DNA from: Candidatus Hodarchaeota archaeon | GTDB lineage: Archaea; Asgardarchaeota; Lokiarchaeia; Sigyniarchaeales; SOKP01 | Reading direction: 5' to 3' | Assembly (NCBI GenBank): GCA_048887145.1 | Contig: JBHLKA010000001.1 | Span: 212 to 64,211, forward strand | Length of the DNA: 64,000 nt | Shown: piece by piece, positions 2,640 to 34,624 of the stretch | How the letters are laid out: each line of letters starts with the position of its first letter | Numbering within the stretch: position 1 is the first letter of the stretch | Notes under the pieces: generated by a model | Databases searched by the model: none | Told to the model about the DNA's origin: nothing | Seen by the model: only the letters and a program-made list of their open reading frames with translations | Program-made: the position numbers and the translations under genes

Positions 2640-3620
2640 ATGAGTAAGGATCAAAAATTAAAAAGTAGACCTGATGAAAAGAAAAGTAAAGAGGAATTAG
2701 AAAAAGAAGCTGAAGAAAAACAACATGAAATTGAATCACTCAGAAAAGCGGGAAAAATAGCTCAAGAAGTTAAAAGCTTTATTAAACCAAGGATAAAAAT
2801 AGAAGCTAAAGTTTTAGATTTAATTGAATCAACAGAATCTAAAATAGTGGAATTAGGAGGAAGCTGTGCTTTTCCTGTAAATGTAGGAATAAATAATATC
2901 GCAGCTCATTATACATCTCCATTAAGAGATGATAATCTAGTGATAAAGGATGGAGATATTGTAAAAATTGATTTAGGTGTACATATTGACGGATATCTTG
3001 TTGATACGGCTTTTACTATAAACTTTAATGATGAAAAAGCATTAGAAAATATTATTCAAGCAACAGAAGTGGCTGTAGAAGCAGCAAAAATGATGGCAAA
3101 ACCAAAAATTAATACAAAAGATATAGGAAAGAAAATTGAAGATATTGTAAGAGGATTTAAATATATTCCAATTAAAGAACTAGGTGGACATCAAGTTGAA
3201 AGATGGACAGTTCATGGCAAAAAACAATTACCTGAATTAGGATCTCAAAGCGGTGATATAATGGAAGAAGGAGATGTGTTTGCTGTCGAAATATTTGCCT
3301 CAACAGGAAACGGCTCTGTTCATTACACAAATGCCTCATATATTTACGAACTTAATCCCTATACTGGAAGGGTTCCTTTAAGAAGAAAATTTTCAAAACA
3401 GATCTTAGGATTTATTAATAAAAATTATAAAACCCTGCCGTTTGCTGAAAGATGGTTAGGTAAAGAATTTAGAATGGGTGTTCTTTTTGGAATTCAAGAA
3501 CTAGTACAACAAGATAAATTAAAAGTTCATAATGTTTTAGCAGAACAAAAAGGTACTTTCGTAGCTCAAACTGAAGAAACTATATTAATAACTGAGGATG
3601 GTTATGAACAACTAACTTAA
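2640..3620 (+). CDS. map: Methionine aminopeptidase, type 2 (archaeal/eukaryotic MetAP2 class) with a charged N-terminal extension
   Basis: Matches include LRKAGKIAQEV, GGSCAFPVNVGINNIAAHYTSP, GDIVKIDLGVHIDGYLVDTAFT, LGGHQVER, GDVFAVEIFASTG and LPFAERWL. It aligns to Pyrococcus-type MetAP from about residue 31 onward. Confidence 0.9.
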   Translation: MSKDQKLKSRPDEKKSKEELEKEAEEKQHEIESLRKAGKIAQEVKSFIKPRIKIEAKVLDLIESTESKIVELGGSCAFPVNVGINNIAAHYTSPLRDDNLVIKDGDIVKIDLGVHIDGYLVDTAFTINFNDEKALENIIQATEVAVEAAKMMAKPKINTKDIGKKIEDIVRGFKYIPIKELGGHQVERWTVHGKKQLPELGSQSGDIMEEGDVFAVEIFASTGNGSVHYTNASYIYELNPYTGRVPLRRKFSKQILGFINKNYKTLPFAERWLGKEFRMGVLFGIQELVQQDKLKVHNVLAEQKGTFVAQTEETILITEDGYEQLT

Positions 3621-3663: not shown

Positions 3664-4773
3664 ATGAAAAAGTTGAAAATTGCTCTTGTTTCTTTAACAA
3701 TTTCTCCAGATAGTCAAGATGGAAGCGCAAAATTTTTTTCAGGGATATATAATTATCTGAAAAATAGAGGTCATGACGTTAAGGTTATAACTGGTAGATG
3801 GAACCTCAATTTAGTTGATCCAAATATCTCACAAATTAAAATAATTCGAAAGAGTTATTTATGGATACCTCAATTCGCATTAAATGTTATTAAATTTCTA
3901 ACAAATATTGATTTTGATATTATTCATGGAAATGGACCTAAAGGTACTTTACCCTTACTATTATACAATAAAAATAATTTCATCTCAACTATTCATGATC
4001 TAGGACCTATTGAATCTAGTTTTTCAGTCATCCCAATTGAGAAGCTTTTAATTAAGGAAGTTATTAAAAAGGCTAATATCATAACAACATGTTCAGAATA
4101 TACAAGACAGCAAATTAAGAATTTCTTCCCTAAAATTGACCTAAAAAAAGTTCATAATTTATATTCGGCTATTGAAAGCAAGTTTAAACCTTATCCTAAA
4201 AAAGCAGAGCAACTTAAAGAAAATTTAGGGTTAAAAGGTCCAGTAGCTTTATATATTGGACGTATAGCCTTATATAAGGATATCGAAAATGTTATTAGAG
4301 CATATAAATATGCAAAAAGAGAAATCCCAAATCTCGAATTAGTAATTGGTGGAACTCCAGATTTTTATATGAAGGAAACTTATAAAAGGTGGAAACAAAA
4401 ATATAAAGATATTCATTTTATTGGGTTCATTCCAGAAGTAGAACTACCTATTTATTATAGCTTGGGTGATGTTTTTATTACTTATTCATATTCTTCAGAA
4501 GGATTTGGACTAACTCCAATTGAAGCAATTGCTTGTGGGACTCCTGCTATTTGCTCTTCTATAGGAGCATATAGAGAAGTTTTACAAAACCATGCGATTT
4601 TTGTTCCACCAAAAAACCCGAAATTTTTAGCAAAAGAACTAATTAATTTAATTAAAAGTGATGAAAAGCGCAGAGAATTACTTAAGCATGCTCAAGAATT
4701 TATATCCAGATATTCATGGAATTCTGTTGGAAAAAAATTAGAGGAAGTTTATGAAAAATTCTTATCAATATAA
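3664..4773 (+). CDS. Glycosyltransferase, family 4 (GT-B, retaining)
   Basis: C-terminal GT4 signature: YSSEGFGLTPIEAIACGTPAICSSIGAYREV. 369 aa. Confidence 0.85.
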   Translation: MKKLKIALVSLTISPDSQDGSAKFFSGIYNYLKNRGHDVKVITGRWNLNLVDPNISQIKIIRKSYLWIPQFALNVIKFLTNIDFDIIHGNGPKGTLPLLLYNKNNFISTIHDLGPIESSFSVIPIEKLLIKEVIKKANIITTCSEYTRQQIKNFFPKIDLKKVHNLYSAIESKFKPYPKKAEQLKENLGLKGPVALYIGRIALYKDIENVIRAYKYAKREIPNLELVIGGTPDFYMKETYKRWKQKYKDIHFIGFIPEVELPIYYSLGDVFITYSYSSEGFGLTPIEAIACGTPAICSSIGAYREVLQNHAIFVPPKNPKFLAKELINLIKSDEKRRELLKHAQEFISRYSWNSVGKKLEEVYEKFLSI

Positions 4774-4774
4774 A

Positions 4775-5845
4775 TTAGTTTTCTATTTTTTTACTAAATT
4801 CATTCAAGGCAATTTCTATTGGATTTTCGAATTGTCTTAATTTTTCTTTTGTATCTATTTTGTAATTCTTTTCTAAAAATTTTAAAGCGGTATTAATTAT
4901 TAAATTGGCATTCTTTACATGTTTTAACGGAAAACCATTATCTATAAGAAATTGCTCTTGAGGGTAAGTAGCTAATGGAAAAAATTCTATTGATGGAACA
5001 CCTAATAGCGCAGATTCTCTAACCATCGTCCCTCCTCCAGTTATAACCATTTTAGCATAAAACATAAAATGTGCTAGATTGTTTAATCCAGTGTATACTC
5101 TTATTACATTTTGTTTTATAGATTCCTTGAAAAATTTACTTAAGTATTTAAATTGTTCAACATTCCGGGTTAATATTAAAAATTTAAAATCAACTTCATT
5201 TTCAAGTAATTTTGGTATAATTTCACTCAATTTGGTTTCATGCGGAGCCATTTTATCTGTTAAATAGCCTGCTTTTGATGGCTCTGTTCGACATACAATA
5301 TACTTTTCAGGATTAAGCCCATGGGCTTTAATAATTTCTCTATTTGGTTTAAAATCAGAAAGCCATCCAACCTCATCAATCCCATTAAATCTAATTATTT
5401 TCTCCTCCTTTAATCCATAATCCAAATACCACTCGATAGGAATACATTGAGGAACTATAATTTGGTTAACATATGGAAACGTTGTGGAGCATGGGCCATA
5501 AGATCGCGGTTCGTCGTTAAACATAATATTAGGAATTTGAAGACCGAAAGAAATTCTCATCGCTTCTGGAGAAGTGATACAAAACAAAAAATTAGGCTTT
5601 CTTTTTATTATAATTTTTATTAACTTTGATAACCTATTCGAATATGCTAATAACTTTCCTTTTAGTGTTCCACCACCATAGCTTCCTACAGGAGTATAAT
5701 TGATACCCCACTGATCTAATAAGAAGTGAGTAGAATCAAAATCCCTAGCTGTTATAAAGACGTTATGATCACCTATTAATTTCTCATATAAAGGTCTTAA
5801 CATAGTCACACTTTTAGGTTCGCAAAAATCTAACCATATTTTCAT
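4775..5845 (-). CDS. DUF354-family protein (GT-B/epimerase-like, glycan biosynthesis associated)
   Basis: The N-terminus MKIWLDFCEPKSVTMLRPLYEKL... resembles the DUF354 start (MKIWIDI..PK....F.PLI.EL). GGGTMVRESALLGVPSIE is a GT-B-like C-terminal motif. Confidence 0.5.
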   Translation of the reverse strand: MKIWLDFCEPKSVTMLRPLYEKLIGDHNVFITARDFDSTHFLLDQWGINYTPVGSYGGGTLKGKLLAYSNRLSKLIKIIIKRKPNFLFCITSPEAMRISFGLQIPNIMFNDEPRSYGPCSTTFPYVNQIIVPQCIPIEWYLDYGLKEEKIIRFNGIDEVGWLSDFKPNREIIKAHGLNPEKYIVCRTEPSKAGYLTDKMAPHETKLSEIIPKLLENEVDFKFLILTRNVEQFKYLSKFFKESIKQNVIRVYTGLNNLAHFMFYAKMVITGGGTMVRESALLGVPSIEFFPLATYPQEQFLIDNGFPLKHVKNANLIINTALKFLEKNYKIDTKEKLRQFENPIEIALNEFSKKIEN

Positions 5846-5867
5846 GAAATCCCTTCTAAGTATTTAA

Positions 5868-6872
5868 TTATACACGTGGTTTATAGTTCCAAAATTCTGG
5901 ATTTTTTTTTATCCATTCAAGTTCTTTCTTTATACCTTCAATTAAACTCGTTTTTGGTTTATATCCCAATGTTTTATGAATTAAAGAATTATCAAGTATA
6001 AAATCTTGTAATTCTCCTGGTAACCTTTTTCGATCTGGTTGATACTTACTGGCTTTTCCTGGTGGAGGATTGTCAAAAATGGGGCTTATAGAATTTCCAA
6101 ATTGTTTTATTAAGATATGTGCTAAATCAATAATTGAATATGAGGTTCCTCCACCTACATTGAAAACCATACCATTGGCCTTTTCACTTTTTATTGCCAT
6201 AATATTTGCTGCAATAGCATCCGATATATAAACAAAATCCCTTCTTTGTTTACCGTCACCGAATATAACGGGTGATTTTCCCTCTAATAGACGTTTTATA
6301 AAAATTGTTAGTACTCTTCCGTACCATTCTCGAGGACCATATACTATTCCATATCTCAGAGAGATAGTTGGGAGGCTATATAATAAATAATATTGACTAC
6401 AATACTTCTCTCCTGCTAATTTACTTACACCATAAGGCCAATGAGGCATAAGAGGATGGTTTTCTGTTTCAGGAATAAATTGCGCTTGACCATAAACGCC
6501 TCCCGATGACGCATACACTAATTTTTTAACATTATTTTTTAGAGAAGCATTTAAAACATTTAGAGTCCCGATAATATTTGTTTTTAAGTCATGTAGGGTA
6601 TTTTCTATTCCCGTAAAAACTTCTAATTCAGCAGCATGGTGAGAAACAATGTCTATATTTTTCATGCATGAATTTAATTTGTTAAAATCTAATATATCGC
6701 CGTCAATAATCTCAACGGGTTTATTTTGGATGAAATCTTTAGTTCCTGTTGAAAAATTATCGTATATAATTATATTCCTTGCTTTCTCTTCTATAATGCG
6801 ATCTACTAAATGAGATCCTATAAATCCTGCTCCACCTGTTATTAAAACACTTTTATCTTTGATTTCCATCAT
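5868..6872 (-). CDS. NAD-dependent nucleotide-sugar epimerase/dehydratase (SDR family)
   Basis: Rossmann motif VLITGGAGFIGSHLVDRI, catalytic YGVSKLAGE (YxxxK), 334 aa. Confidence 0.85.
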   Translation of the reverse strand: MMEIKDKSVLITGGAGFIGSHLVDRIIEEKARNIIIYDNFSTGTKDFIQNKPVEIIDGDILDFNKLNSCMKNIDIVSHHAAELEVFTGIENTLHDLKTNIIGTLNVLNASLKNNVKKLVYASSGGVYGQAQFIPETENHPLMPHWPYGVSKLAGEKYCSQYYLLYSLPTISLRYGIVYGPREWYGRVLTIFIKRLLEGKSPVIFGDGKQRRDFVYISDAIAANIMAIKSEKANGMVFNVGGGTSYSIIDLAHILIKQFGNSISPIFDNPPPGKASKYQPDRKRLPGELQDFILDNSLIHKTLGYKPKTSLIEGIKKELEWIKKNPEFWNYKPRV

Positions 6873-7114
6873 GATTCCTTTTTAATTATTTATTTAGGAT
6901 TCTACTCCTCTAAATATTATCAAAAATCTATTACTTTGTTGAAAATGAATTTAACTATTATTATATAGTTAAATACTGTCCCTTTATTATATCTTTCATT
7001 ATATGTTTCAATAAAACTTCACATCTAAAGAGTTGTAGAAAAATTAATTTAAATTATGTTTAATTTCTTAAAGTCATATTTTATTTTTAAAAAAACAATT
7101 AAAAAATCGAATCT

Positions 7115-8479
7115 ATGATTTTAATATCACAATTTAATTGGGAAATACTTGAATTTTTTTATTTAGTCATTATATTTATCAGCGGCTTTTTTGTAACTTA
7201 TACATTTATACCTTATCTCATAAAATTTATGAGAAATAAAGGGTTTGTTGGTTATGATATTCACAAAAATGCAAAACCTGAAATTCCTGAGTCAGGAGGC
7301 TTAAGCCTTATCCTTGGTTTGACTGTAACTTCGTTATTCGCCATCATTTTTTTTCCTATTTTGCGTAATGAATTGCTAGTTTTTCTCTTAACGATTTTAT
7401 TATCCGGAGCAATAGGTTTTATTGATGATCGGATAAAATTAAGATCTTTATATAAGATTTTATTAACGGTTTTTACAGGAGCAATTATTTTTGTAGCAAA
7501 TTTTTTTGGTTTTATAACCATCCATTCTCCTACAATACCTTTTCTAGGATTTACAAGATTAACAAGAATTTATCCATATGTGGCTCCTTTCATCGTAGCT
7601 TTTTTTGCAAACACATCGAATATGCTAGAAGGATATAATGGTGAAGGTTCAGGGACATCATTAATTGCATTATGTTTTCTTCTAATTTGTGCAATATTTT
7701 GGAATTCTGCTGAAGCTGTAATATTCATTATTTCTGGAATTAGTGTTTTGATTCCTTTTTTCCTATATAATAAATTTCCTGCAAAAATCTTTCCTGGAGA
7801 TATAGGTACTTTAGGCACGGGTTCTCTTTTTGCGTGTATTGCATTATTAGGGTCATTAGAGGTTGCAGTATTTTGTGCACTTCTTATTCAAGTTATAAAT
7901 AGTTTTTATGTAATTAGTTCAGTAAAAGGTTTTTTAGAAAGCAGTCAGATTCAAACTCAGAAAAATGATATAATCCTTTTAGAGGATGATAGAATCAAAG
8001 CCTCAGATCAAAAGGATGCAGCATTAACCTTACCGAGATTAATCTTAGCAAAAGGACCATTAAAAGAACCAGAATTAATAAAACAATTTTATATTATTTC
8101 AATTATTTGTGGGATTTTTTCCATAACTGCCTTCTTATCTATACAATGGACATTGGGTAATTTAAATGCTCTTACCTTTTTCCTTATTTTCATGGTTTTT
8201 CTAGTTTTAATAATATTAATATCATACTTTTTTCCCAGAATAAGGGGAACCGTAATTTTGATGATAATTCTTTTAGCTATAATTAGTATATCATTGATTT
8301 TTATCGATTCTGTTATCATGTCGATTTTTCAAGAGGATATTAACTTAGGAATAATAGTAATTCCTAGTAATATCCTTTTTTCAATCCTTTTAGTTACTCC
8401 AGGATTAATATTATGGTATTTGTTAACAATCAAATTTTTTTGGAGAGAAATTGACAAAATGAAAGAATTGGGAACTTAG
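7115..8479 (+). CDS. Polyprenyl/dolichyl-phosphate N-acetylhexosamine-1-phosphate transferase (MraY/WecA/ALG7 family, AglH-like)
   Basis: Polytopic membrane protein with GFIDDRIKL, NMLEGYNGEGSG and FPGDIGTLGTG motifs of the GPT family. It has an extra C-terminal multi-TM extension. Confidence 0.75.
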   Translation: MILISQFNWEILEFFYLVIIFISGFFVTYTFIPYLIKFMRNKGFVGYDIHKNAKPEIPESGGLSLILGLTVTSLFAIIFFPILRNELLVFLLTILLSGAIGFIDDRIKLRSLYKILLTVFTGAIIFVANFFGFITIHSPTIPFLGFTRLTRIYPYVAPFIVAFFANTSNMLEGYNGEGSGTSLIALCFLLICAIFWNSAEAVIFIISGISVLIPFFLYNKFPAKIFPGDIGTLGTGSLFACIALLGSLEVAVFCALLIQVINSFYVISSVKGFLESSQIQTQKNDIILLEDDRIKASDQKDAALTLPRLILAKGPLKEPELIKQFYIISIICGIFSITAFLSIQWTLGNLNALTFFLIFMVFLVLIILISYFFPRIRGTVILMIILLAIISISLIFIDSVIMSIFQEDINLGIIVIPSNILFSILLVTPGLILWYLLTIKFFWREIDKMKELGT

Positions 8480-8586
8480 ACTTTTATGTAGAGTACAGCA
8501 TGATTCTCTTTAATTAAAACCCAATATTAATATTTTTCACAAAATTTTTGCAATCATAATTTTTATTAAATTACTTTAAGGCAATC

Positions 8587-9651
8587 ATGAAAAAAATATT
8601 AGTTACTGGTTCGGGAGGTCCAGCAGGAGTGAATTTTCTAAAATCGTTGAGCTTAGTTAAGGAGAAAATCCAATTATATGGTACAGATATTAATCCTTAT
8701 CATTTAGAATTTGGAAAACCCTGGACAAATAAAATGTTTTTAGTTCCTCGTGCAGTTTCAGATCAGTACATACCAAGCTTAAATGAGATAATAAATCAAT
8801 ATAAAATACAATTTATCCATCCTCAACCTGATATTGAGGTCTTTAAAGTTTCTGAAAATCGTGAAAAACTTAACGCAATTACATTTTTACCAAAAAAAGA
8901 TACAATTCGAACTTGTCAAGATAAATTTTTAAGTGCTGATATTTGGAGAAAAAAAAATTTTCCTTCTGTTAGAGCCATTGAAATAAGGGATACCCATTTA
9001 GAAAGTGATCTGGAAAATGCTTTTGATTGGTTAGGAGAAAAATTATGGATTCGTGCCAAAAAAGGTGCTGGTGGTACTGGAAGCACTCCAATTAAAAATG
9101 TAGAAACTGGAGTTAATTGGATTAAATATTGGCGTGCCCGCGGAAAAAAATGGGATTTTATTGCCCAAGAATATTTACCAGGCAGAAATATTGCTTTTCA
9201 AAGCATTTTTAAGAATGGAGAGTTAATTACCTCACAAGCTAGAGAAAGAATTGAATATATTTATCCTTATCTCGCTCCTTCGGGAGTTACGGGAACCCCT
9301 ATAGTAGCTAAAACTATACATGATGATAATGTAAACAAAATGGCAACTGAGACAGTATTAGCAATTGATCCAGACGCAACAGGCGTATTTTGTGTTGATT
9401 TAAAAGAAGATAAAAATGGAGAAATTTGCCCTACAGAAATTAATGCGGGTAGATTTTTTACAACGAGCTATTTTTTCTCTTATGCCGCTAAAAAATTCAA
9501 TAAACCTTTAGCAAACATGCCTTATATTTTGGTAAAACTTGCATTTAAAGAATCAATTCCTGAAAGTCAAAAATTCAATATTTTGCCAAAAGATCTCTAT
9601 TGGATAAGGCATATAGATTGCTCTGAACATTTAATTGAAGGGAAAGTTTAA
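8587..9651 (+). CDS. ATP-grasp domain protein
   Basis: Matches LVTGSGGPAGVN, KKGAGGTGS, IAQEYLPGRNIAFQS and CPTEINAGRF (the E.N.R of ATP-grasp). It sits in a glycan-biosynthesis neighbourhood. Confidence 0.65.
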   Translation: MKKILVTGSGGPAGVNFLKSLSLVKEKIQLYGTDINPYHLEFGKPWTNKMFLVPRAVSDQYIPSLNEIINQYKIQFIHPQPDIEVFKVSENREKLNAITFLPKKDTIRTCQDKFLSADIWRKKNFPSVRAIEIRDTHLESDLENAFDWLGEKLWIRAKKGAGGTGSTPIKNVETGVNWIKYWRARGKKWDFIAQEYLPGRNIAFQSIFKNGELITSQARERIEYIYPYLAPSGVTGTPIVAKTIHDDNVNKMATETVLAIDPDATGVFCVDLKEDKNGEICPTEINAGRFFTTSYFFSYAAKKFNKPLANMPYILVKLAFKESIPESQKFNILPKDLYWIRHIDCSEHLIEGKV

Positions 9652-9676
9652 CTGATATTAAAAAAGATTTCATATT

Positions 9677-9976
9677 TTAATATTCATTCGTACATTTACA
9701 GGGCTTATAACCACATTTTTTACACTGATTTGGGTATTTATTAAAGAGAGCATGCTCTAAATCAATGTTCAATAAGTTTGCTAATGAATTTGTCCACGCA
9801 ATGATATCAGCTAATTCTTCTGAAATTTTAGCAGTATCAATATTATTTTTTTTCAAAAGTGTTGCCAATTCACCAATTTCCTCTACTAACCATAAGAATG
9901 TATTTTTAATGCCTCTCTTACAATCTTTCTTAAAATATAACTCTTTCATTAAATCTTGAAACTCAGAAATCTTCAT
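9677..9976 (-). CDS. MazG-like nucleotide pyrophosphohydrolase domain protein with a Cys-rich C-terminal tail
   Basis: LVEEIGELA...EELADIIAW is the EExxE/ExxD MazG helix pair. The tail is CKKCGYKPCKC. Confidence 0.6.
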   Translation of the reverse strand: MKISEFQDLMKELYFKKDCKRGIKNTFLWLVEEIGELATLLKKNNIDTAKISEELADIIAWTNSLANLLNIDLEHALFNKYPNQCKKCGYKPCKCTNEY

Positions 9977-10017
9977 AATACAATCTTGTAAAGTGTAATA
10001 AAAATAAGTTATTTAAA

Positions 10018-10236
10018 TCAGCCAGGTGTAAATAACCATTCAAAAATACCAAGATGAGCAAAAATTACTATTAAAATTAATGCAACTGTCAAAATAACTG
10101 TACTAATAGGTCCCACCTTTATACCAATAGAACTATCCTCGAAAAACCTCATTAACCCCGCTCCTCCCATAGGCATTGGAGCAGTTCCACTTCGTCTTTT
10201 TCGGCGTCTTGATTGGGATCTTCTTTTTGTAGACAT
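10018..10236 (-). CDS. secG: Protein translocase subunit Sec61-beta (archaeal SecG)
   Basis: 72 aa with a basic N-terminus, GGAGLMRFFEDSS.GIKVGP, then a single C-terminal TM. This is the Sec61beta signature. Confidence 0.75.
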   Translation of the reverse strand: MSTKRRSQSRRRKRRSGTAPMPMGGAGLMRFFEDSSIGIKVGPISTVILTVALILIVIFAHLGIFEWLFTPG

Positions 10237-10394
10237 GATTTCTAATTTATCAAAAAGTTTTTAATCAGGAATTATTTTAATATAGAATTCTATTAATATT
10301 AAGTTTTATCCCGAATTATAAAAATAAAATTAAATAAATTTTTATTATTTATTTTAATTATTTGTAGTTAATTTAAGGAGTAAAATATAAAGAT

Positions 10395-12269
10395 ATGTTC
10401 AGAAGAAAAAAAATTTGTTTATTAGCTATAGGATTGATTTTTCTAATTATTCTAATATCAAATATTCATTATAATTCTGAAAACAGTAAGATTAACGAGG
10501 AAAATATAACTCCAAAATTATCTACAAGTTTAGAAGGAGTAGAGAATATTTTAATTACAGATATGATACGAACTGTAAATATTAGCGGATATGATCTAGT
10601 AAATTTTAAAGACAAATTAACGATTTTAAATCAAAATAATAACCCAATAACTTCAATATTTTTTCCAATACATTTAAACAAATCAAATGATGTAATATTT
10701 TGTAAAGCAACGGGTGAGAGCAAGAATACTCTATTAACTGAAAGAAACTATCTTGTTTTAAATGATTATGAACTAATAGCTATCTATTTTGATTCACCAC
10801 TATTACCCCATCAAAAAACAACTATATCTTTTTACCATTCACTCACAAATTGTCTAATTTATTATACAGAATTAACTGCGGAATATCAACTTGAACAATA
10901 TATCAATATAACAGAATCTATTTTTCCAATTTTACCTTATAAAGCAGAAGGTGGGGAAATCCAGACAAATTTCATATTACCTAAGACCTCAAATGTTATT
11001 TGGTTTGATACAGTAGAGGATCTTGGATTCCCTATCATTGAAACTCACATAGTATATGATTTGACTCAAACTCTTTATTTTGATCGTGTAGACCCATTTC
11101 TAGCAAATTTCAATAAATCTCAACAAGAGGTCTTAATTACTTTTCAAGACAATAGATTTACCAAAATGGAATTCGAAAAAGTCAATCGCGAAATAAATAT
11201 CTCACCATGGGGAATAATTAAAGTTAAAGAGAATTACATATTCCAGAATTTGGGAGCTATTGATATAAGCACTTTCCCATTACATATTCCGTATAGCTCC
11301 AAAAATGTGCATGTGTATGATGATATTGGCAACATTGGTGAAGATGTTGTTTTAGATGATAGTGAGGCATTTTCAAATAAAAAATCATTTATTATTAATT
11401 TAGCTCAAAACAGAGTCCCATTGAAACCATTATCTAAAATCAGTTTTACTGTAGAATATTTTTTAGACATTAGTGATTACAATTCAATAAATTGGTTTCA
11501 AGAATCAATCCAAATCAATTTATTTACAACAACCTTTGATTGGGTAAGTAGGGAACAAACTATTAATGTTGTTGTTCAAGGATGTAATAATTTGGAATAT
11601 GTGTCGCTTCCACCTGATGCAATAATTGATTCTGGAGGTTCAAAAACTTTGGTATATAACTTTAACATTGTAACCTCAATTGAATCTAAAATGATTCAAT
11701 TCACTTTTTCAATTGATCTCTTTGAATTATTACTTAGACCAATTTTAATTTCATTAATAATTGGACTTTTAGCATCAATTTATGTTATTGTAATTAAAAT
11801 CAAAAAAGAAAGAGAAGAAAAATTTGTTACTGAAAAAGTTGAAATTCCTGTAGATGAACTTCGCGAATATTGTTCATTATCAGAGGAAAAAAATGCTTTA
11901 GTTTTAGAAATTAGAAGAGCGGAAGAAGATGCTAAACGAAAAAAAATAGCAAAGAAAGTATACAGTAATCTCTTAAGCAAAAACACTACCAAAATAGAGC
12001 AAATCAAACAAGAATTACTTCCATTTAAAAAAGTTCTAATAGAAACTAGTGAAACTTTTGAAAATACAATCAAAAAATTAGATGTTTTAGATGCTGAAAG
12101 AGAAAGCGTGAATGATAGTCTAACTTTATTAGATAATCGATATAAAAGAGGTAAGTTACCCTCTAAAGCTGCTTATCAAAAACTTCTTGAAGATTTCATG
12201 AAAAGGAGGAGAAGGATTGATAGAACAATAGATAAAAATATTCAACAGTTAAGAAGCTATTTACTATAA
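10395..12269 (+). CDS. Ribophorin I / OST1-like oligosaccharyltransferase subunit homologue
   Basis: It has an N-terminal signal-anchor, a ~430 aa extracytoplasmic domain, one TM ([24 protein letters not shown]) and a ~155 aa charged coiled-coil tail. Remembered human RPN1 motifs are matched. [12 protein letters not shown] resembles [35 protein letters not shown] resembles [34 protein letters not shown] resembles VYYRDEIGNV. Confidence 0.6.
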   Translation: [624 protein letters not shown]

Positions 12270-12303: not shown

Positions 12304-12927
12304 ATGAAACCATGGCTATTTGATATTTTAGCATGCCCTATAGATAAACACTTCCCTTTAGAATTATTTATTTTTTCATTTGGGACAAGCGAAGATGAAT
12401 TTCAATTATTTGTAAATAATTATAAGAAAAGAGATTTAGAAATTGTTAAAAAAGAAAATATTATTGAAATATATCGAGAAAATGATAATTTATTTGTCAA
12501 AGATAATATTATCATCGAACAAACTCCCATTCAAAAATACCTTGAGTTAATAAGTTTAAGTATTAACGAATTAGATTTTATACATGATAAATCATCAAAT
12601 AAAGCTAGCAAAATATGTTTCAATATAATTAAAAATGAAATTAAAAAGAAAATTATAAACTATTCTAAAAATATAAAGCTTGACAAGATTGAAACATTAT
12701 TACCGGAATTTATTTTTATAAATAAAATTAAACTCGAAACTGAGATTGAATCAGGTCTTTTATTTTGTCCAAGATGTAAACGCTGGTTCCCCATAAGAGA
12801 CAGCATTCCACAAATGCTTCCAGATGAATACAGAAATGAAAACGAAGAAATTGACTTTTTAAAACTTAATAGTAAATTATTAGGAGAAAAATTTTTTAAA
12901 CACGATTTAAAACCATTTAATATTTAA
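12304..12927 (+). CDS. Trm112-like zinc-ribbon protein with a large internal insertion
   Basis: The N-terminal half-motif LFDILACPIDKH and the C-terminal half LLFCPRCKRWFPIRDSIPQMLPDE form the Trm112 signature. They are separated by about 130 aa. Confidence 0.55.
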   Translation: MKPWLFDILACPIDKHFPLELFIFSFGTSEDEFQLFVNNYKKRDLEIVKKENIIEIYRENDNLFVKDNIIIEQTPIQKYLELISLSINELDFIHDKSSNKASKICFNIIKNEIKKKIINYSKNIKLDKIETLLPEFIFINKIKLETEIESGLLFCPRCKRWFPIRDSIPQMLPDEYRNENEEIDFLKLNSKLLGEKFFKHDLKPFNI

Positions 12928-13228: not shown

Positions 13229-14179
13229 ATGATAAGCACTGTTAAAAATATTTTAAATCTTTTGCGAATAAGACAGTATTACAAAAATTTATTAATTTTT
13301 GTAGGTTCTTTCTTTGGTGGGAAATTATTAGACATTTCAATTTTACCACTTCTTATTTTAGGCTTTATTATTTTATGTTGCGCATCTTCAATCAATTATA
13401 TTATAAATGATATAATCGATATCAAAAAAGATAAACTACACCCAGAAAAATTAGAAAAAAAAGCCCTCGCTTCTGGAAACCTTTCTATATTGTTTGCCCT
13501 GGTCTTAATGGCATTCCTTTCTGCAGTTATAATAATTTTATTGATATTTTTAATCCCAAATTTAAATTTCATCATCATGCTGGGATTAGTATTTGGAACG
13601 GGACAACTATATAATTATTTCTTTAAAAAGTTTGCATTTATTGATGTTTTAGTTTTAGCATTAATTTACCTATGGCGTGCATTAGCAGGATGCGTCTTGA
13701 TAGATATTATTGTATCTCCATGGTTAATTTTAGCTGTATATGAAGCTGCATTATTTTTGGTTATTGCAAAAAGAAAAGGAGATTTAATATTATTAGGAGA
13801 AGAAAAAGCCAAAGTACATAAAAAAATCTACAAACAATATAACATGAAATTGTTAGACCAATTCCATACCATCACTGCTGCTACAATCTTAATTACTTAT
13901 ACTATGTATTTAATATCTCAATTCTATCTATTCGAAGATTTAAGTTTTTTTTATCAATACTTAATAATATTATCTATACCCACTCTATTTTATATTATTA
14001 TGAGATATATGTTTTTAACAAGAGCGAAACCCGAAATTGCTCGGAGTACTGAAAAAGTAATTTTCGATAAGGGAATCCTTATCGCTGGGTTATTTTTAGG
14101 TGCGATATTCTTTTTTACTTTTTATTATATTGATATAAAGCAGATTCTATATGATCTGTTTAAAATATCTTTACCTTAA
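13229..14179 (+). CDS. UbiA-family prenyltransferase (decaprenyl-phosphate phosphoribosyltransferase-like subfamily)
   Basis: Polytopic membrane protein. It has LRIRQYYKNLLIF at the N-terminus and the NDIIDIKKDKLHP (NDxxDxxxD) motif. Confidence 0.75.
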   Translation: MISTVKNILNLLRIRQYYKNLLIFVGSFFGGKLLDISILPLLILGFIILCCASSINYIINDIIDIKKDKLHPEKLEKKALASGNLSILFALVLMAFLSAVIIILLIFLIPNLNFIIMLGLVFGTGQLYNYFFKKFAFIDVLVLALIYLWRALAGCVLIDIIVSPWLILAVYEAALFLVIAKRKGDLILLGEEKAKVHKKIYKQYNMKLLDQFHTITAATILITYTMYLISQFYLFEDLSFFYQYLIILSIPTLFYIIMRYMFLTRAKPEIARSTEKVIFDKGILIAGLFLGAIFFFTFYYIDIKQILYDLFKISLP

Positions 14180-15711: not shown

Positions 15712-17523
15712 ATGGAAATGGAAAAGAAAAATGTAGCAATCATTATCCTTGCCATAGCATTAATCGCCTCCGGTGTTGGTAACATTATCCTTGTTCTAGA
15801 GCCGGAATTTGTGCCTCCACCGGGAGTACGGACCCTTTTATTCGGTAATATGTATATAGCAGAAGATATCGACCCTCAATATGCTTGGGATTCTGCTTCT
15901 TTTGATGCGACTATGATGGTATATGAGTGTTTACTTAAGAATAATTTGACTCAAGCTTCCTTAGGACAACCAATGACCTCCTTTCCCTTACTTGCATCTG
16001 ATATGGGTACTTACGATGTAACCGGAACAGAATTAACGTTTAACCTTAGACAGGGGATTACATTCCACGATGGCGCTCAATTTAATGCTTCTGCTGTTAA
16101 ATTCAGTTTTGATAGATTAGCATACTTAATGAATGTTACTGGTCATCCTTGGGGCCCTCTGCCTAATACTAACGTTTATGGAACCATAAGTGTTATCGAC
16201 TCCTTATATAGGTGGGGTGATGGTACACCAATCATTAACCGCACTGAAGTTATCAGTAATTATATTGTAAAGATTATACTAAATAAACCTCATGGTGTAT
16301 TCCGTGCTTTGTTAACATTCCCAGCAGCAGCTATTATGTCACCTGTATCTACACCTCAACTTGATTTCATAGATCCAGCTTTAGCGGGATTAGATCCTTT
16401 AGGAATAATCCCTAATCCTGTTGCTGGAACTGGTCCTATGATATTAGAAAATATAGATACCTACGAAGTAAGATTCTCTGCTTATGAAGATTATTGGCGA
16501 CCCCGAATAGCTATAGATGTCTTAGTACATGTTAAAATTACAGATTCTGATACTAGAAACTTGGCAGTGATGGCTGGTGATGTTGATCTTATACAAGATC
16601 CATTCGATGCTTACCATGCACAAATGAGGACTACTCCAGGTCTTACTCTTTTAGATACTGGAACAACCAGCGCGATCACCTCATATATGGGGATCAATAC
16701 TAGACTTTATAATGTAACCTGGAGAGAGGCGTTTTCATACGCATTCAACTATTCCGCTGTAATTGATGGTATTAAGATGGGTAACGCAGTTAGAATGGTA
16801 TCTCCTGTACCAATAGGAATTAAATGGCATAATGGCACATTTGATTACGCAACTTATGACCTTGCACATGCCAGATCAGTCATGAATAGCATGGGTTTTG
16901 GAGTTGGCTTTACAGATCAAGATTGGATAGACCAGGCGAACGGCCCATCGCCGTTCTTAACTTTGAACTACACGTATAACATTGGTAACCCAATCAGAGA
17001 AGGTATAAGAGATGTAGTGATGGACAATTTCGAAAGAATTGGAGTACTTGTTACGGATGCGGGTGTGACATGGGAGGATTACAAGGATCGATTCTACAAT
17101 AGAAGGACTCCCGGTGTAAGTCACGGCTGGGATTCATTAAATATTTATTGGCTTGGATGGATCCCTGACTATAACGATCCCGAGAACTTCATTAACCCAA
17201 TGTTCAGTAATATTTCATACAGTAACGCTTGTCAAATAAATGATCCTATTTTAGAAACATTAATGGCAGCTGGAATCGAGGAAACCGATGAAGATATGAG
17301 AAGACCTCTTTATATGGCGATGCAAAAACGTCTCGTTGAGGTTCTTATGCCTTTTATGTGGGGCTACCACGAGATTAACTTTGAAGCCTTCAATAGCCAA
17401 CTTAAGGGATGGTGGAGTAACCCAATCTCATATAATGATTTATATGGAGTGTACTGGGAGGGACAACTTAATCCAGGCGAATTTGGATATATGGGAGATG
17501 GACACATACCCTTACCCCCCTAA
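15712..17523 (+). CDS. ABC transporter substrate-binding protein, family 5 (Opp/Dpp/Nik type), membrane-anchored
   Basis: 603 aa with an N-terminal TM anchor (VAIIILAIALIASGVG). SBP_bac_5-like features include LTFNLRQGITFHDGAQFNASAVKFSF and GTGPM. It lies upstream of cognate permeases and ATPases. Confidence 0.85.
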   Translation: MEMEKKNVAIIILAIALIASGVGNIILVLEPEFVPPPGVRTLLFGNMYIAEDIDPQYAWDSASFDATMMVYECLLKNNLTQASLGQPMTSFPLLASDMGTYDVTGTELTFNLRQGITFHDGAQFNASAVKFSFDRLAYLMNVTGHPWGPLPNTNVYGTISVIDSLYRWGDGTPIINRTEVISNYIVKIILNKPHGVFRALLTFPAAAIMSPVSTPQLDFIDPALAGLDPLGIIPNPVAGTGPMILENIDTYEVRFSAYEDYWRPRIAIDVLVHVKITDSDTRNLAVMAGDVDLIQDPFDAYHAQMRTTPGLTLLDTGTTSAITSYMGINTRLYNVTWREAFSYAFNYSAVIDGIKMGNAVRMVSPVPIGIKWHNGTFDYATYDLAHARSVMNSMGFGVGFTDQDWIDQANGPSPFLTLNYTYNIGNPIREGIRDVVMDNFERIGVLVTDAGVTWEDYKDRFYNRRTPGVSHGWDSLNIYWLGWIPDYNDPENFINPMFSNISYSNACQINDPILETLMAAGIEETDEDMRRPLYMAMQKRLVEVLMPFMWGYHEINFEAFNSQLKGWWSNPISYNDLYGVYWEGQLNPGEFGYMGDGHIPLPP

Positions 17524-25826: not shown

Positions 25827-26912
25827 TTAATTTAATTTAATTCGCTCTGCTAATGCTCTACTTAATCTTCCAATCTGTATCTTTATTGAAAAATGTGGGC
25901 CGAATTTAATATGGATAATTCTCAGTAAAATCCCAAGTAAAAAGAGAGTGATTGAAATGTACATTAAGAGATATATATGTTGTAAACTGTTTTGAAAAAT
26001 AAAAAATAATACATTATGAAGTAGATAAATAGAAAGGGAATAATATGAGAAATAATAAAGAAATTTGTAATTTTTCTTAAAATGAAATACTTCTATTTCC
26101 TCAATAAAAATCAGAGAAGATATTAAAATCAGTTGGATACCTAATGAATAAACCAACCAAGAAAATGTCCGATGATGTAAGAAATTAGGAAATCGAAAGA
26201 ATACCCCAAAAATTATCAAAATTATACCAAATATTAATCCTGGAATCAATAATTTCTTCTTTAGGATGAACTTTCTCTCTTTCTGATCCTCTATTAAATA
26301 AATTTCAAAAATTATCTCTCCAACAACTGTTCCAATTATAAAAAATGTGAAGAATGATAAAATAGGATCTAGTCCTAATCTATTATATAGGAGATGATTA
26401 AGGATGCCAAGAAAATTCATTTGTCCACTAAAATTTGATAAACAATTCATTAAAAATAAATTAATTACCCATAAAAATAAACCTAAATATATTCTGAAGA
26501 GTTTACTGGTTTTCAATAAGGGCCAACCTAAAAATAATGACACAGAAACTGTTTGTAAAATAAACCAAGTCCAAATATCTGCTGGATTATTCAATTTTAT
26601 AGATATAATAGCATTATATATCAAGGCAATTATAAATATAATGGATGTACGGAGCAAATACGCTCTCCTATACAACTTTATATTACTAAATTTATTTATT
26701 TCTATCTCCTGAATATTTTTCTTATATGACAACGCAGTGCTTACTCCAGCAATAAATAAAAAGGCTCCTGAACCTAATGGGTCTCCTATTGAACGAAGTG
26801 TATTGAAAAACCAAATTTCCTCATTTAATATCCACCACTCAGTCAAATGGCCAATTATCATCCAAACAATGCTTATACCCCGAAGAGTGTCAATCGTTTT
26901 AAATCTCTTCAT
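25827..26912 (-). CDS. Polytopic membrane protein, DUF1624/HGSNAT-like acyltransferase family
   Basis: The N-terminal RFKTIDTLRGISIVWMIIGHL motif is followed by about 10 TM segments. Confidence 0.5.
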   Translation of the reverse strand: MKRFKTIDTLRGISIVWMIIGHLTEWWILNEEIWFFNTLRSIGDPLGSGAFLFIAGVSTALSYKKNIQEIEINKFSNIKLYRRAYLLRTSIIFIIALIYNAIISIKLNNPADIWTWFILQTVSVSLFLGWPLLKTSKLFRIYLGLFLWVINLFLMNCLSNFSGQMNFLGILNHLLYNRLGLDPILSFFTFFIIGTVVGEIIFEIYLIEDQKERKFILKKKLLIPGLIFGIILIIFGVFFRFPNFLHHRTFSWLVYSLGIQLILISSLIFIEEIEVFHFKKNYKFLYYFSYYSLSIYLLHNVLFFIFQNSLQHIYLLMYISITLFLLGILLRIIHIKFGPHFSIKIQIGRLSRALAERIKLN

Positions 26913-32453: not shown

Positions 32454-33248
32454 ATGAATATTAATATTTCCAAATTTCTTAATAAAAAAAATCAATACAT
32501 TGATGCTAATGATATAATTAATGAAAAAAGCAAAAATTTAAAACAATCCAATTTATTATGTTCAGGCTCAAAAGATTTGAATAAAATATTGAAAGGTGGA
32601 TTCCATTCAGGAAAAATGTATTTAATATTTGGTGCAAATAGTACAGGGAAAACTCAATTATGTCATCAATTATGTATAGAAGCATATAAAAAATTTTCTA
32701 ATTCTATTTATATAGATACTGAAAATACCTTTCGACCGGAGAGAATTAATGAACTAGCCGAAATTCATAAACTTAATTCGGCTAAGGTGTTAAAAAGTAT
32801 TTTAGTTTCAAAGATTATGAGCAATTCGATGTTCCTCTTAAATATAAAAAATATTAAAAACTTGATAACAAGTAAAAATTACAAAGTGATTTTGATAGAT
32901 TCAATTAATAATCATTATCGCCTTGAGCAAGCTGATTCAAATATAAGTTATTTGAAAGCTAAAACAACTTTTATGAAGATCTTGGAATATTTTAATCATA
33001 TTACTGATAAATACAATTTAATTACAATCACTACAGCTCAAATTACTCCTAATTTTATTAATAACTCTATCATTAATCACATTCCCGTAGGAATTCAATT
33101 TCTTAGCCATTTCTTTTCAGAGTTCTTATATTTAAGCTTTAAGGAAGAATCAATTGGATATGCCCATTTAGTTAATTCTTTTTCCCTTCCAGAAAAAAAA
33201 GCATTATATAAAATAACTTCTGAAGGCATTCAAGATTATGAACTCTAA
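32454..33248 (+). CDS. RadA/Rad51-family recombinase paralogue (core ATPase domain only)
   Basis: Walker A is GANSTGKTQLCHQL. IYIDTENTFRPERI is the Rad51/RadA-specific motif. Walker B is VILIDSINNHYRLE. At 264 aa it lacks the N-terminal HhH domain. Confidence 0.65.
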   Translation: MNINISKFLNKKNQYIDANDIINEKSKNLKQSNLLCSGSKDLNKILKGGFHSGKMYLIFGANSTGKTQLCHQLCIEAYKKFSNSIYIDTENTFRPERINELAEIHKLNSAKVLKSILVSKIMSNSMFLLNIKNIKNLITSKNYKVILIDSINNHYRLEQADSNISYLKAKTTFMKILEYFNHITDKYNLITITTAQITPNFINNSIINHIPVGIQFLSHFFSEFLYLSFKEESIGYAHLVNSFSLPEKKALYKITSEGIQDYEL

Positions 33249-34091
33249 TTAATATTTATTTAAAACTAATTTCTCAAAACTATTTAATGAAATGTTTAGA
33301 AAGTTCTTAGATTTAGTTGTGGAATTTACATAATAAATCGGACATTCAATCTGATTTTTAATCCATTCTATTAACTTCTTTGCGAAAGTTAATTTCATTA
33401 TTTTAATTTTTGAACCTTTAAAATTCTCAAGTTTACCAACCTTACTATATTTTCCAATTATTTTGTCAAAATCCATCCCTATTAAAAAAATTTTATGTTC
33501 TGGCGATACTAGAGATTTTAAAAAAAAAAGAATTCGATCTCCATCAGTAAAACCACCATGATTTATGATACTTTCAAGAGGTTCCACTTGAGTAGTACAT
33601 ATTATATTTTCAAATTTAATAATATGCTCTTCAAAATCTTGCAATTTATTTAGATTATCTCCATGAGCATGAAGGACTACAAATTTAGAGTAGTAAAATT
33701 CCGTATTTGTTATGCCGTCTAAATCCGTAAAAACAGCATCAACACGTATTTCATTTTCTCGTAATAATCTAGATGCTCCATCTGCAGTAAAATTAAGAAA
33801 ATTATTAAAAATATGCTTTCCTTTAGTATCAAGAATATAATCTATTGTTTCTTCTAAAGAAGGGCCACAACCATATACTAAAATTGTATTTTTACTTTTA
33901 ATAAGACTATTAAGAGAATCAAGAACTTTTTCAAGATTCCATTCTTTAGATTTTTTTAATATAATTTTGTGTAAAAAATCTCTTGCTTCATTATCACTAT
34001 GGATATCGAACTTGAAAGCTTTTATGATTTTAACATAAAATTGTTTGAATTCTTCATAAAAGTTAATCCTATCTTTTAAGGAAGCTATCAT
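33249..34091 (-). CDS. mptE: MptE-like 6-hydroxymethyl-7,8-dihydropterin pyrophosphokinase (DUF115)
   Basis: Matches ILVYGCGPSLEE, ADGASRLL, FTDLDG and LHAHGDN, as I remember the DUF115/MptE pattern. Confidence 0.6.
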   Translation of the reverse strand: MIASLKDRINFYEEFKQFYVKIIKAFKFDIHSDNEARDFLHKIILKKSKEWNLEKVLDSLNSLIKSKNTILVYGCGPSLEETIDYILDTKGKHIFNNFLNFTADGASRLLRENEIRVDAVFTDLDGITNTEFYYSKFVVLHAHGDNLNKLQDFEEHIIKFENIICTTQVEPLESIINHGGFTDGDRILFFLKSLVSPEHKIFLIGMDFDKIIGKYSKVGKLENFKGSKIKIMKLTFAKKLIEWIKNQIECPIYYVNSTTKSKNFLNISLNSFEKLVLNKY

Positions 34092-34222
34092 TTTAATGAA
34101 TTCAATTTTAAGAGTATAGCCAATAAAAAAATTTTATATTTTTGATATAATTAATTTTATCATATAATTAAATTCAATATAATTTTAATTCATAAAATTA
34201 TTAACAAGGAGTTTGATATTGT

Positions 34223-34624
34223 ATGACAGTATGGTTTACTAAAACCCATCAGTGGTTTAATGATGCAACTGGAGAGGTTGGAATTACCCCCTATGCTGCT
34301 GAACAATTAGGTGAGATTTCTTTTGTAGATGTTGAAGCTCTTGAAGGAGCTACCATAGAACAAGTTAAGATGGATGGTGACGAGCCAAGTAGCGATCCAT
34401 TGGATTGTACCGTTGAATCAAGTAAAGCTGTTGGAGATATTTATAGCCCAGTTTCAGGCAGTGTTACCGAAGTAAATGTTGATTTAATGGATGAGCCTGA
34501 AAAAATCAATGAAGATGCTCTCTCTGCATGGTTATTTAAAGTTAACCCTTCCAATTGGGATGCAGAGAAAGGAAATTTATTAGACGAAGCCGCTTATAAG
34601 GCTTTCATTGAAACACTAAAATAA
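34223..34624 (+). CDS. gcvH: Glycine cleavage system H-like lipoyl-carrier protein
   Basis: Matches FTKTHQW....GEVGITPYAAEQLGEISFVD and VESSKAVGDIYSPVSGSVTEVN (lipoyl-lysine context). 133 aa. Confidence 0.8.
   Translation: MTVWFTKTHQWFNDATGEVGITPYAAEQLGEISFVDVEALEGATIEQVKMDGDEPSSDPLDCTVESSKAVGDIYSPVSGSVTEVNVDLMDEPEKINEDALSAWLFKVNPSNWDAEKGNLLDEAAYKAFIETLK

Follow-up and report, generated by a model that had tools for sequence, protein, structure and literature searches.

A conserved neighbourhood of OST1, Sec61beta and lipid-linked-glycan genes in Asgard archaea

Homologues of the oligosaccharyltransferase (OST) subunits OST1 (ribophorin I) and OST3/6, of Sec61 and of TRAP in Asgard archaea have been used to argue that the translocon and glycosylation machinery of the eukaryotic endoplasmic reticulum was inherited from archaea. 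Eme et al. (PMC10307638) list homologues in Asgard archaea for every OST subunit and for TRAP, and the crystal structure of OST1's cytosolic domain from P. syntrophicum MK-D1 (8WHN) has been solved, together with the demonstration that human ribosomes are recovered with this domain in pull-downs (Carilo et al. 2024, PMC11417166). That these OST and translocon parts are functionally linked has yet to be shown in an archaeon. Here we describe a locus that offers testable handles on such a link. It surrounds an OST1 homologue in a stretch of 64,000 nucleotides (the window) of a Candidatus Hodarchaeota archaeon (assembly GCA_048887145.1, contig JBHLKA010000001.1, positions 212 to 64,211 of the forward strand).

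The glycans that such a machinery would transfer have been characterised in P. syntrophicum. This organism makes three linear N-glycans without a chitobiose core, in which a pentose comes after a linking sugar of 304.13 Da, interpreted as HexNAc with a threonine attached; their main carrier is a family-5 solute-binding protein (SBP) (PMC11284389).

The window has a G+C content of about 28%. An initial annotation had seen in it a eukaryote-like N-glycosylation neighbourhood, made of glycosyltransferases, an initiating phosphotransferase and sugar-modifying enzymes next to Sec61beta and a ribophorin-like protein. Every gene that it named lies where it was placed, and all of its family calls hold in Pfam and NCBIfam profile searches against curated cut-offs, on which the gene identities given below are based. 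The ribophorin I, OST3/OST6 and GT4 Pfam families all score above their cut-offs. We find that the Sec61beta-OST1 pair is kept across divergent lineages, and that the initiating phosphotransferase stays near OST1 through many rearrangements. We judge it somewhat better than an even bet that the locus combines a translocon-associated OST accessory pair with a module that primes and extends a dolichol-linked N-glycan, with lineage-specific sugar tailoring.

The Sec61beta-OST1 pair and its neighbourhood

The OST1 gene (10395-12269, + strand) scores 65 bits with the Ribophorin_I family PF04597, whose cut-off is 25 (E 9e-18). Compared with solved structures, a profile built from 12 members of the family reaches 8WHN with 160 bits and the lumenal and transmembrane parts of human RPN1 (6S7O_E) with an E value of 3e-9. 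In the AlphaFold (AF2) model (pLDDT 84.5), a signal anchor is followed by an extracellular beta-rich domain (residues 52-440), a single transmembrane helix (442-476) and a cytosolic four-helix bundle (486-514, 520-551, 553-584 and 591-623). When the model was searched against the PDB with Foldseek, ranks 1-8 all went to OST1 chains from the OST complexes of human and yeast (E 1e-32 to 5e-21), with target-normalised TM-scores of 0.66-0.70 for the lumenal and transmembrane parts. Rank 9 is 8WHN (TM-score 0.87, rmsd 2.1 A, 45% identity), and unrelated folds start only at E 1e-7. Sequence identity to the human proteins is 16-17%. On these profile, model and fold matches, the OST1 of the window is a secure member of the published Asgard family.

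This family comprises 481 clusters at 50% identity (E<=1e-3) and divides into clades that are just 20-30% identical to one another, the cytosolic tail being the best-conserved portion. The relatives of the window's OST1 are nearly all labelled Promethearchaeota, i.e. Loki-type Asgard archaea, and an identical protein is found in a metagenome-assembled genome labelled Candidatus Hermodarchaeota (GCA_048885625.1). The left part of the window matches contig JBHLLL010000004.1 of that assembly and the right part contig JBHLLL010000013.1, so that the window derives from a longer version of this sequence. The OST1 of MK-D1 falls in another clade, with a full-length identity of about 28%. The literature disagrees on this organism: Nakagawa et al. 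(2024, PMC11284389) state that Ost1 is absent in P. syntrophicum, and Carilo et al. crystallised part of WP_147663064.1. We recovered QEE16185.1 of P. syntrophicum as a member of the OST1 family, contrary to the stated absence.

Divergent from OST1 lies the gene for a Sec61beta / SecG-type translocon subunit (10018-10236, - strand), a protein of 72 aa with one C-terminal transmembrane segment that matches PF03911 with 46.7 bits (cut-off 27) and NCBIfam PRK01253 with 48.2 bits, slightly under its cut-off of 55. The A+T-rich spacer of 158 bp between the two genes (10237-10394), read directly from the sequence, is presumed to hold a shared promoter region. Downstream of Sec61beta and in the same direction runs a small MazG-like NTP pyrophosphohydrolase (9677-9976, - strand; PF03819, 36.7 bits). 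On the other side, a Trm112-like zinc-knuckle gene (12304-12927, + strand; PF03966, 48 bits) starts 34 bp 3' of OST1. It encodes 207 aa, with an insert of about 130 aa separating the two halves of the zinc knuckle; the archaeal Trm112 6ZXW_H aligns with residues 1-16 and 145-177. Although MazG and Trm112 are inside the block, a role in glycosylation is not evident for either. No small Ost4/Ost5-like open reading frame was found in the intergenic gaps around OST1, and homologues of Ost2, Wbp1 and Swp1, at which no search was aimed, were not noticed in the window.

The matches listed for OST1 and for PNPT, the polyprenyl-phosphate HexNAc-1-phosphate transferase of the locus, were taken up by close relatives, with no distant lineages among them, and a profile of distant OST1 clades returned 15 proteins. 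Scanning a single genome of each species yielded 80 OST1 loci, which were scored with the window's proteins; all counts below refer to loci with enough flank to be informative. Distant OST1 clades were reached through representatives of the clades and their contigs, and a second scan was anchored on PNPT in metagenomes. Individual related contigs are cited by their L numbers in this analysis.

The core of the neighbourhood, with Sec61beta divergent from OST1 and OST1 followed by Trm112, is invariant over about 80 related species. Sec61beta is divergent from OST1 in 74/74 informative loci, with a gap of <400 bp in 77/78, and the Trm112-like gene directly follows OST1 in 72/72, as it also does in L083, L084 and L086. 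MazG is present in 71/73 (and in L084 and L139). Among the other genes, DUF354 is found in 52/53 informative loci, GT4 in 50/52 and the UbiA-family gene in 43/43, and PNPT lies <8 kb from OST1 in all 46 loci, upstream in 8 and downstream in 38. A family-5 SBP is present in 31/37.

We then asked how this arrangement fares in more distant relatives. In L109, L119, L120, L123 and L124, OST1 is only 32-36% identical to that of the window and the gene set is kept. L120 and L124 have the complete order GT4-DUF354-SDR-MazG-Sec61beta<->OST1-Trm112-PNPT-ATP-grasp-M48-UbiA, of which the shorter contigs carry parts. L139 is rearranged: an SDR gene is followed by MazG-Sec61beta<->OST1->GT4, with Sec61beta again divergent from OST1 and a gap of 10 bp before GT4, and then by Trm112<->PNPT->DegT aminotransferase, DUF354 and a hexapeptide transferase. 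Together, the SDR, the aminotransferase and the acyltransferase of L139 make up the classic route to di-N-acetylated trideoxyhexoses. Trm112 is likewise the divergent neighbour of PNPT in L090 and L127, and short contigs show Trm112<->PNPT alongside ATP-grasp, DUF354 or a hexapeptide transferase. L086 has PNPT<->OST1->Trm112, and L089 retains Sec61beta<->OST1. Overall, the proximity of PNPT and OST1 within a few kb survives at least five gene orders, including lineages whose OST1 is 26-36% identical to the window's. In MK-D1, Sec61beta (WP_147663065) and OST1 (WP_147663064) have consecutive accessions, which suggests that the two genes are adjacent there too.

Thus, PNPT, DUF354, GT4 and the sugar-tailoring genes are a recurrent module near OST1 and Sec61beta, yet one that is separable from them. 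This bears out the earlier observation of lipid-linked-glycan genes beside translocon and OST accessory subunits. The set, with candidates for initiation and for extension, recurs in about 80 species, and several rearranged versions of it exist. In the literature that we searched we found no description of the Sec61beta-OST1 pair, of its linkage to PNPT or of the variable cassette described below; the extended PNPT and the OSTC-type subunit likewise appear undescribed.

Glycan-assembly genes and a variable tailoring cassette

The PNPT gene (7115-8479, + strand; GPT/AglH-like) matches PF00953 with 92.8 bits against a cut-off of 27. Its closest relative among solved structures by sequence is human DPAGT1 (41 bits), with MraY at 32 bits, and it remains far under the thresholds of the curated MraY equivalogs (TIGR00445, 42.8 bits versus 192; NF053644, 31.5 versus 450). 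A Foldseek search with its AlphaFold model (pLDDT 80.6, pTM 0.85) returned DPAGT1 at ranks 1-14 (E 1e-11, TM-score 0.70-0.75) and MraY at ranks 15-38 (E 2e-10, TM-score 0.69-0.78). The catalytic motifs defined for AglH/Alg7 are DxxK, DDxxD/N and NxxNxxxGxxGxxxG (PMC5222938); invariant among the homologues of the window's protein are D48xxK51 (D48-I-H-K51), D104D105, N166xxN169xxxG173xxG176xxxG180 and FPGD229. From these sequence and model comparisons we infer a PNPT of the archaeal/eukaryotic branch, a candidate initiating enzyme with GPT-like activity. It is a divergent enzyme, for which DPAGT1 is only slightly ahead of MraY, and the eukaryote-like label is not supported for it. In the tree of Lombard (2016, PMC4973528), moreover, a Lokiarchaeum homologue sits in a basal archaeal clade, outside the crenarchaeal AglH clade that gave rise to Alg7.

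The protein does have the unusual C-terminal membrane extension that had been noticed from its sequence. In the AlphaFold model, the tenth core helix is followed by three extra transmembrane helices (352-372, 374-404 and 418-453) with no counterpart in DPAGT1 or MraY, and the 454-aa form is kept throughout the 120 best clusters of homologues, as well as in a distant lineage's homologue with 38% identity. At the other end, the deposited gene call begins at the equivalent of 7229 and encodes 416 aa. Homologues keep the N-terminus of the 454-aa form, which aligns with the first transmembrane helix of DPAGT1; the database call is therefore probably truncated, with this helix cut off.

The GT4 glycosyltransferase (GT-B fold; 3664-4773, + strand) matches PF00534 with 114.7 bits and PF13439 with 53 bits. 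Named NCBIfam families are matched below threshold only, and its best solved relatives are the generic GT4 enzymes Tll1590, BshA and PimA. It is a candidate extender of the lipid-linked glycan. GT4-type enzymes of Lokiarchaeum are unrelated to Alg2/Alg11 (PMC4973528).

The DUF354 protein (4775-5845, - strand) belongs to the GT-B / UDP-sugar 2-epimerase-like superfamily (PF04007, 157 bits). A single-sequence search of solved structures found no relative, and a profile of 19 homologues found UDP-GlcNAc 2-epimerase 4HWG as the sole plausible one (E 0.005). There are weak matches to PseG and MurG, with scores of 16.5 bits versus 250 for murG and 13.8 versus 22 for PF04101. We considered DUF354 as an equivalent of Agl24 or Alg13/14. 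The GGxGGH motif shared by Agl24, Alg14 and MurG was defined, with its catalytic His, in the Agl24 paper, where DUF354 is never mentioned (PMC8993221). This motif is absent from the window's protein, whose N-terminus reads W-L-D-F-C-E-P-K-S (W-I-D-I-E-E/Q-P-K-T in relatives), and DUF354 is therefore not the known second-GlcNAc transferase. A full-text literature search for DUF354 returned unrelated DUF354x families only.

Only 22 bp upstream of DUF354 and on the same strand lies a GalE-like SDR nucleotide-sugar 4-epimerase/dehydratase (5868-6872, - strand; PF01370, 194 bits), with UDP-glucose 4-epimerase 4ZRM as its closest solved relative (175 bits). Beyond PNPT follows an ATP-grasp ligase of the carbamoyl-phosphate-synthase-like family (8587-9651, + strand). 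Its PF02655 score of 24 bits is just over the cut-off, its NCBIfam match PRK12767.1-1 (75.5 bits, E 3e-21) is under it, and no sequence relative was found among solved structures; we regard it as a candidate sugar-decorating enzyme. Downstream of Trm112, a UbiA-family membrane enzyme resembling polyprenyl-phosphate phosphoribosyltransferases (13229-14179, + strand) matches NCBIfam PRK12324.1-2 with 164.6 bits, under the cut-off of 234. Its closest solved relative is the decaprenyl-phosphate phosphoribosyltransferase of M. tuberculosis (8J8J, E 2e-21), and synthesis of a lipid-linked pentose donor is a possible function.

Two further membrane proteins of the window may be mentioned here. A multi-pass acyltransferase (25827-26912, - strand) matches the HGSNAT catalytic domain with 54 bits and Acyl_transf_3 with 38 bits, and could acetylate glycans. 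A 107-aa protein with two transmembrane segments (42143-42466, - strand) has matches, all below cut-off, to DPM3, DPM2 and PIG-P, small subunits belonging to enzymes for dolichol-phosphate-mannose and GPI.

The content of the DUF354 slot differs between related loci. Type I loci, such as the window, have DUF354 subtype 1 with SDR and ATP-grasp. In type IIa loci (26), DUF354 subtype 2 is accompanied by a hexapeptide acyltransferase, and in type IIb loci subtype 2 stands alone. The SDR is found in type I loci only, and the ATP-grasp protein, about 77% identical among them, is absent from all type II loci save one short contig (L070). The flanking proteins are equally distant from those of the window in both types, with identities of 49.8% (type I) and 47.5% (type II) for OST1 and of 62.6% and 60.3% for PNPT, but DUF354 drops from 69.5% to 41.5%. 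With near-identical close relatives left out, type I loci match the window's subtype with 67-75% identity, and other loci with about 41%. The slot therefore varies independently of its framework, as in surface-glycan loci, and by sequence DUF354 and the tailoring genes behave as a swappable cassette.

OSTC-like subunit, candidate substrates and wider setting

A second OST-related protein is encoded 22 kb from the cluster. This OSTC/DC2-like protein (34779-35291, - strand) has 170 aa and three predicted transmembrane segments. It matches PF04756 (OST3_OST6) with 31.5 bits, 4.5 bits above the cut-off of 27, and only over profile positions 179-288 of 294, which is the transmembrane part. Among solved structures its closest relative is human OSTC/DC2 (6S7O_H, E 2.5e-6; residues 40-164 versus 14-144, nearly full length). 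OSTC is the sole OST-family match in this search, with Ost3, Ost6 and MAGT1 unmatched at E<=10, and the thioredoxin-like domain of Ost3/Ost6/TUSC3/MAGT1 was not detected in the 170-aa protein. Hence, both calls on which the initial annotation most depended have held: the ribophorin-like and the OSTC-like proteins pass profile and sequence tests, and OST1 passes the fold test as well.

The OSTC-like gene lies in a region (32454-36887) with genes for GCV_H (34223-34624), an MptE-like protein (33249-34091), a Rad51-like protein (32454-33248) and an M20 peptidase. In distant OST1 clades, a glycine-cleavage P protein adjoins OST1 (L085, L087 and L088), and L086 has the order OST1-Trm112-MptE-Topo-Rad51. 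It may be that a single syntenic block formerly held both OST1 and the OSTC-like gene.

The catalytic subunit AglB/STT3 is absent from the 64-kb window, as the initial annotation had said: the WWDxG motif occurs in none of the six frames, and the only open frames of >510 aa are OST1 and the SBP. An 847-aa gene that lies between PNPT and UbiA in most relatives was considered as AglB and rejected, for it encodes a membrane protein of the M48 peptidase family and is itself absent from the window. Such multi-pass M48 (Ste24/HtpX-type) peptidases of 840-850 aa lie between PNPT and UbiA in L032 (14051-16594) and about 50 other loci, and are missing in the window and its nearest relatives.

Two proteins stand out as possible substrates. 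The family-5 SBP (15712-17523, + strand; PF00496) has an N-terminal anchor and 9 N-x-S/T sequons versus 4.3 expected, and is followed by ABC permeases and ATPases up to 23679 (+ strand). Given its family-level likeness to the main N-glycoprotein of P. syntrophicum, it is a plausible N-glycoprotein substrate. A membrane-anchored protein with hydrophobic N- and C-terminal segments (54875-56263, + strand) has 12 sequons versus 4.8 expected and no match in Pfam; it adjoins a DUF4430 protein and an ECF-transporter component. We also considered a sequon-rich SBP as the direct neighbour of OST1 in MK-D1, and rejected it. By accession arithmetic, the locus tag of OST1 (QEE16185) would be close to 02010, a long way from DSAG12_03090.

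At the edge of the syntenic block, and conserved there, lies a type-2 methionine aminopeptidase (MetAP; 2640-3620, + strand) with a Lys/Glu-rich N-terminal extension of about 35 aa. MetAP and Sec61beta are thus two nascent-chain-processing genes inside one block. Further eukaryote-type domains are scattered across the window: a weak PHD/RING-like finger (36971-38077, + strand), a double SH3 protein (39587-39943, + strand), a WD40/beta-propeller protein (40961-42073, + strand) and two Roadblock/LC7 proteins (2041-2412 and 56764-57198, both - strand). Finally, selenocysteine machinery is present, with a SelB-like elongation factor (57226-58677, - strand), tRNA-Sec (62920-63012, + strand; Rfam, 62 bits) and, just beyond the end of the window (as seen in L082), SepSecS. 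The tRNA-Sec, the Roadblock/LC7 genes and SH3 are among the genes of the window that are typical of Asgard archaea.

Possible function of the locus and comparison with known systems

In the reading that we favour, the locus would hold two groups of genes. In the first, Sec61beta and OST1 are transcribed divergently from the 158-bp spacer. OST1, the OSTC/DC2-like subunit and an AglB/STT3 encoded elsewhere would form an OST at the SecYE-beta channel and glycosylate chains as they emerge, an arrangement resembling eukaryotic OST-A. In the second, the PNPT with its 13 transmembrane helices would transfer a HexNAc-type sugar-1-phosphate to dolichyl phosphate, and on the cytoplasmic side GT4, perhaps with DUF354, would lengthen the chain. 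The swappable cassette would tailor nucleotide sugars, using the GalE-like SDR and the ATP-grasp ligase here and, in other lineages, a hexapeptide acyltransferase that is accompanied in some cases by a DegT aminotransferase. That Asgard N-glycans with unusual HexNAc-derived linking sugars exist (PMC11284389) speaks for this reading. Our analysis shows the assignments to families and folds, the conserved neighbourhood and the polymorphism of the cassette; the substrates, the complex, the co-regulation and an N-glycan as the product, rather than another glycoconjugate, are what we infer.

Several observations count against this reading. The window has no AglB, and the agl genes of P. syntrophicum were described as dispersed (PMC11284389). 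MraY fits the PNPT model nearly as well as DPAGT1, the published tree leaves the Lokiarchaeum homologue of PNPT in a basal clade (PMC4973528), and DUF354, to judge from its relatives, may act as an epimerase or a hydrolase and not as a transferase. In addition, the whole 17-kb block is syntenic in the window's clade, including the unrelated Roadblock, MetAP, MazG and Trm112 genes. Synteny inside the clade is therefore no proof by itself of a functional link, and part of the linkage may reflect inheritance rather than selection. Outside the clade, the MK-D1-type loci L083 and L084 keep only Sec61beta<->OST1->Trm112 (with MazG in one of them) and have no glycosyltransferase nearby, and L085 and L088 have neither Sec61beta nor PNPT adjacent to OST1, which is adjoined by glycine-cleavage genes instead. 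These arrangements show that the two gene groups are separable.

The same facts invite another explanation, in which PNPT, GT4, DUF354 and the tailoring genes make a different lipid-linked product, such as a surface polysaccharide, a glycolipid or an O-linked glycan, and are linked to OST1 by descent only. Both the synteny of the unrelated genes and the MK-D1-type loci without glycosyltransferases agree with it. The PNPT family also primes polymers other than N-glycans, with WecA and MraY as examples (PMC4973528), and variable cassettes are typical of surface-polysaccharide loci. Against it speak the persistence of PNPT near OST1 through at least five gene orders, down to an OST1 identity of 26-36%, and the GT4 gene that begins 10 bp after OST1 in L139; the genes examined, moreover, included none for the polymerase, chain-length or export functions of a polysaccharide pathway. 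We regard this explanation as unlikely, though it deserves weight. We are more doubtful still of an extended form of the favoured reading, a coupled OST-A-like machine predating eukaryotes. In it, SecYE-beta and the ribosome would be the docking site of AglB, OST1 and the OSTC/DC2-like subunit, and PNPT would be tethered to this assembly by its three extra, lineage-specific transmembrane helices, so that priming, transfer and translocation would be co-localised. The Sec61beta<->OST1 pair and the PNPT linkage would be its genomic trace, and the cassette would set a lineage-specific reducing-end sugar.

A wall-type glycopeptide pathway, similar to that of pseudomurein or murein, would give PNPT the part of MraY, DUF354 that of MurG and the ATP-grasp enzyme that of a peptide ligase. 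The weak mraY, archaeal MraY and murG matches, the fit of MraY structures to the PNPT model and the resemblance of the ATP-grasp protein to carbamoyl-phosphate-synthase-like ligases all lean this way. But the three family scores are far under their cut-offs of 192, 450 and 250 bits, there are no Mur-type ligases in the block, and ATP-grasp is missing from most related loci while PNPT and DUF354 stay. To our knowledge, cultured Lokiarchaeia have no cell wall. They have been described without wall or S-layer (PMC11284389), and such a pathway seems to us very improbable. Scarcely credible, finally, is an ordinary archaeal agl cluster in which the ribophorin-like and OSTC-like calls are false positives. 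The glycan-assembly half is indeed ordinary archaeal, and the PF04756 match exceeds its cut-off by a small margin. Against this, the Ribophorin_I score, the profile matches to human RPN1 and 8WHN, the eight OST1 chains at the head of the fold search and OSTC as the best solved relative of the 170-aa protein refute a cluster without eukaryote-type components, and the window has no AglB, on which agl clusters are usually anchored.

The favoured reading thus keeps the term eukaryote-like for one half of the locus. It applies to OST1, the OSTC-like protein and Sec61beta, and not to glycan assembly, with its divergent PNPT, generic GT4 and DUF354 without GGxGGH. The only Asgard N-glycans measured so far are without a chitobiose core (PMC11284389). 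The components (OST1, OST3/6, Sec61) are published Asgard families, and their conserved arrangement is a modest new detail. It does correct the picture of Asgard agl genes as no more than dispersed. Furthermore, a subunit that resembles OSTC and not Ost3 is a hint of glycosylation docked on the translocon, of the OST-A type, and from the cassette polymorphism one can predict between which lineages N-glycan structures should differ.

Compared with the pathway of Sulfolobus and eukaryotes, in which AglH/Alg7 is followed by Agl24 or Alg13/14 (PMC5222938, PMC8993221), the locus shares the PNPT motifs, a DPAGT1-like fold and a nearby gene of the GT-B superfamily. It differs in the three extra helices of PNPT, the position of the Lokiarchaeum homologue outside the AglH/Alg7 clade, the lack of GGxGGH in DUF354 and the lack of a GlcNAc2 core in measured Asgard N-glycans. 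The agl clusters of Haloferax volcanii and Methanococcus spp. also combine glycosyltransferases with nucleotide-sugar tailoring for a dolichol-linked N-glycan, and also vary in content between lineages. However, they are anchored on aglB, whereas the window's cluster is without aglB and anchored on OST1 and Sec61beta, which those organisms lack; many of them, too, initiate with GT2 enzymes on Dol-P (PMC4973528), unlike the PNPT found here. Bacterial O-antigen, capsule and pgl loci show the same conserved framework with a variable slot, the cassette type being independent of flanking-gene divergence. The window's system would be archaeal and dolichol-based, has no polymerase or export genes and is framed by translocon and OST subunits.

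The closest described system is the translocon and OST of P. syntrophicum MK-D1 (8WHN, PMC11417166). Its OST1 has the same architecture, with a C-terminal domain 45% identical to that of the window, an OST3/6-family subunit is present, and Sec61beta and OST1 are apparently adjacent. In contrast, no glycosyltransferases flank OST1 in MK-D1-type loci, where the window has PNPT, GT4, DUF354 and tailoring genes, and ribosome binding was shown for the MK-D1 domain (with human ribosomes), whereas the window's OST1 is known from sequence and model. With eukaryotic OST-A (STT3A, ribophorin I, DC2/OSTC) on Sec61 (6S7O, 8B6L), a system that sits in another membrane, the window's complex, known from its genes and expected in the cell membrane, would share an OST1 with lumenal beta domain, one transmembrane helix and cytosolic four-helix bundle, a small OSTC-like subunit of three transmembrane segments without a thioredoxin domain, and Sec61beta.

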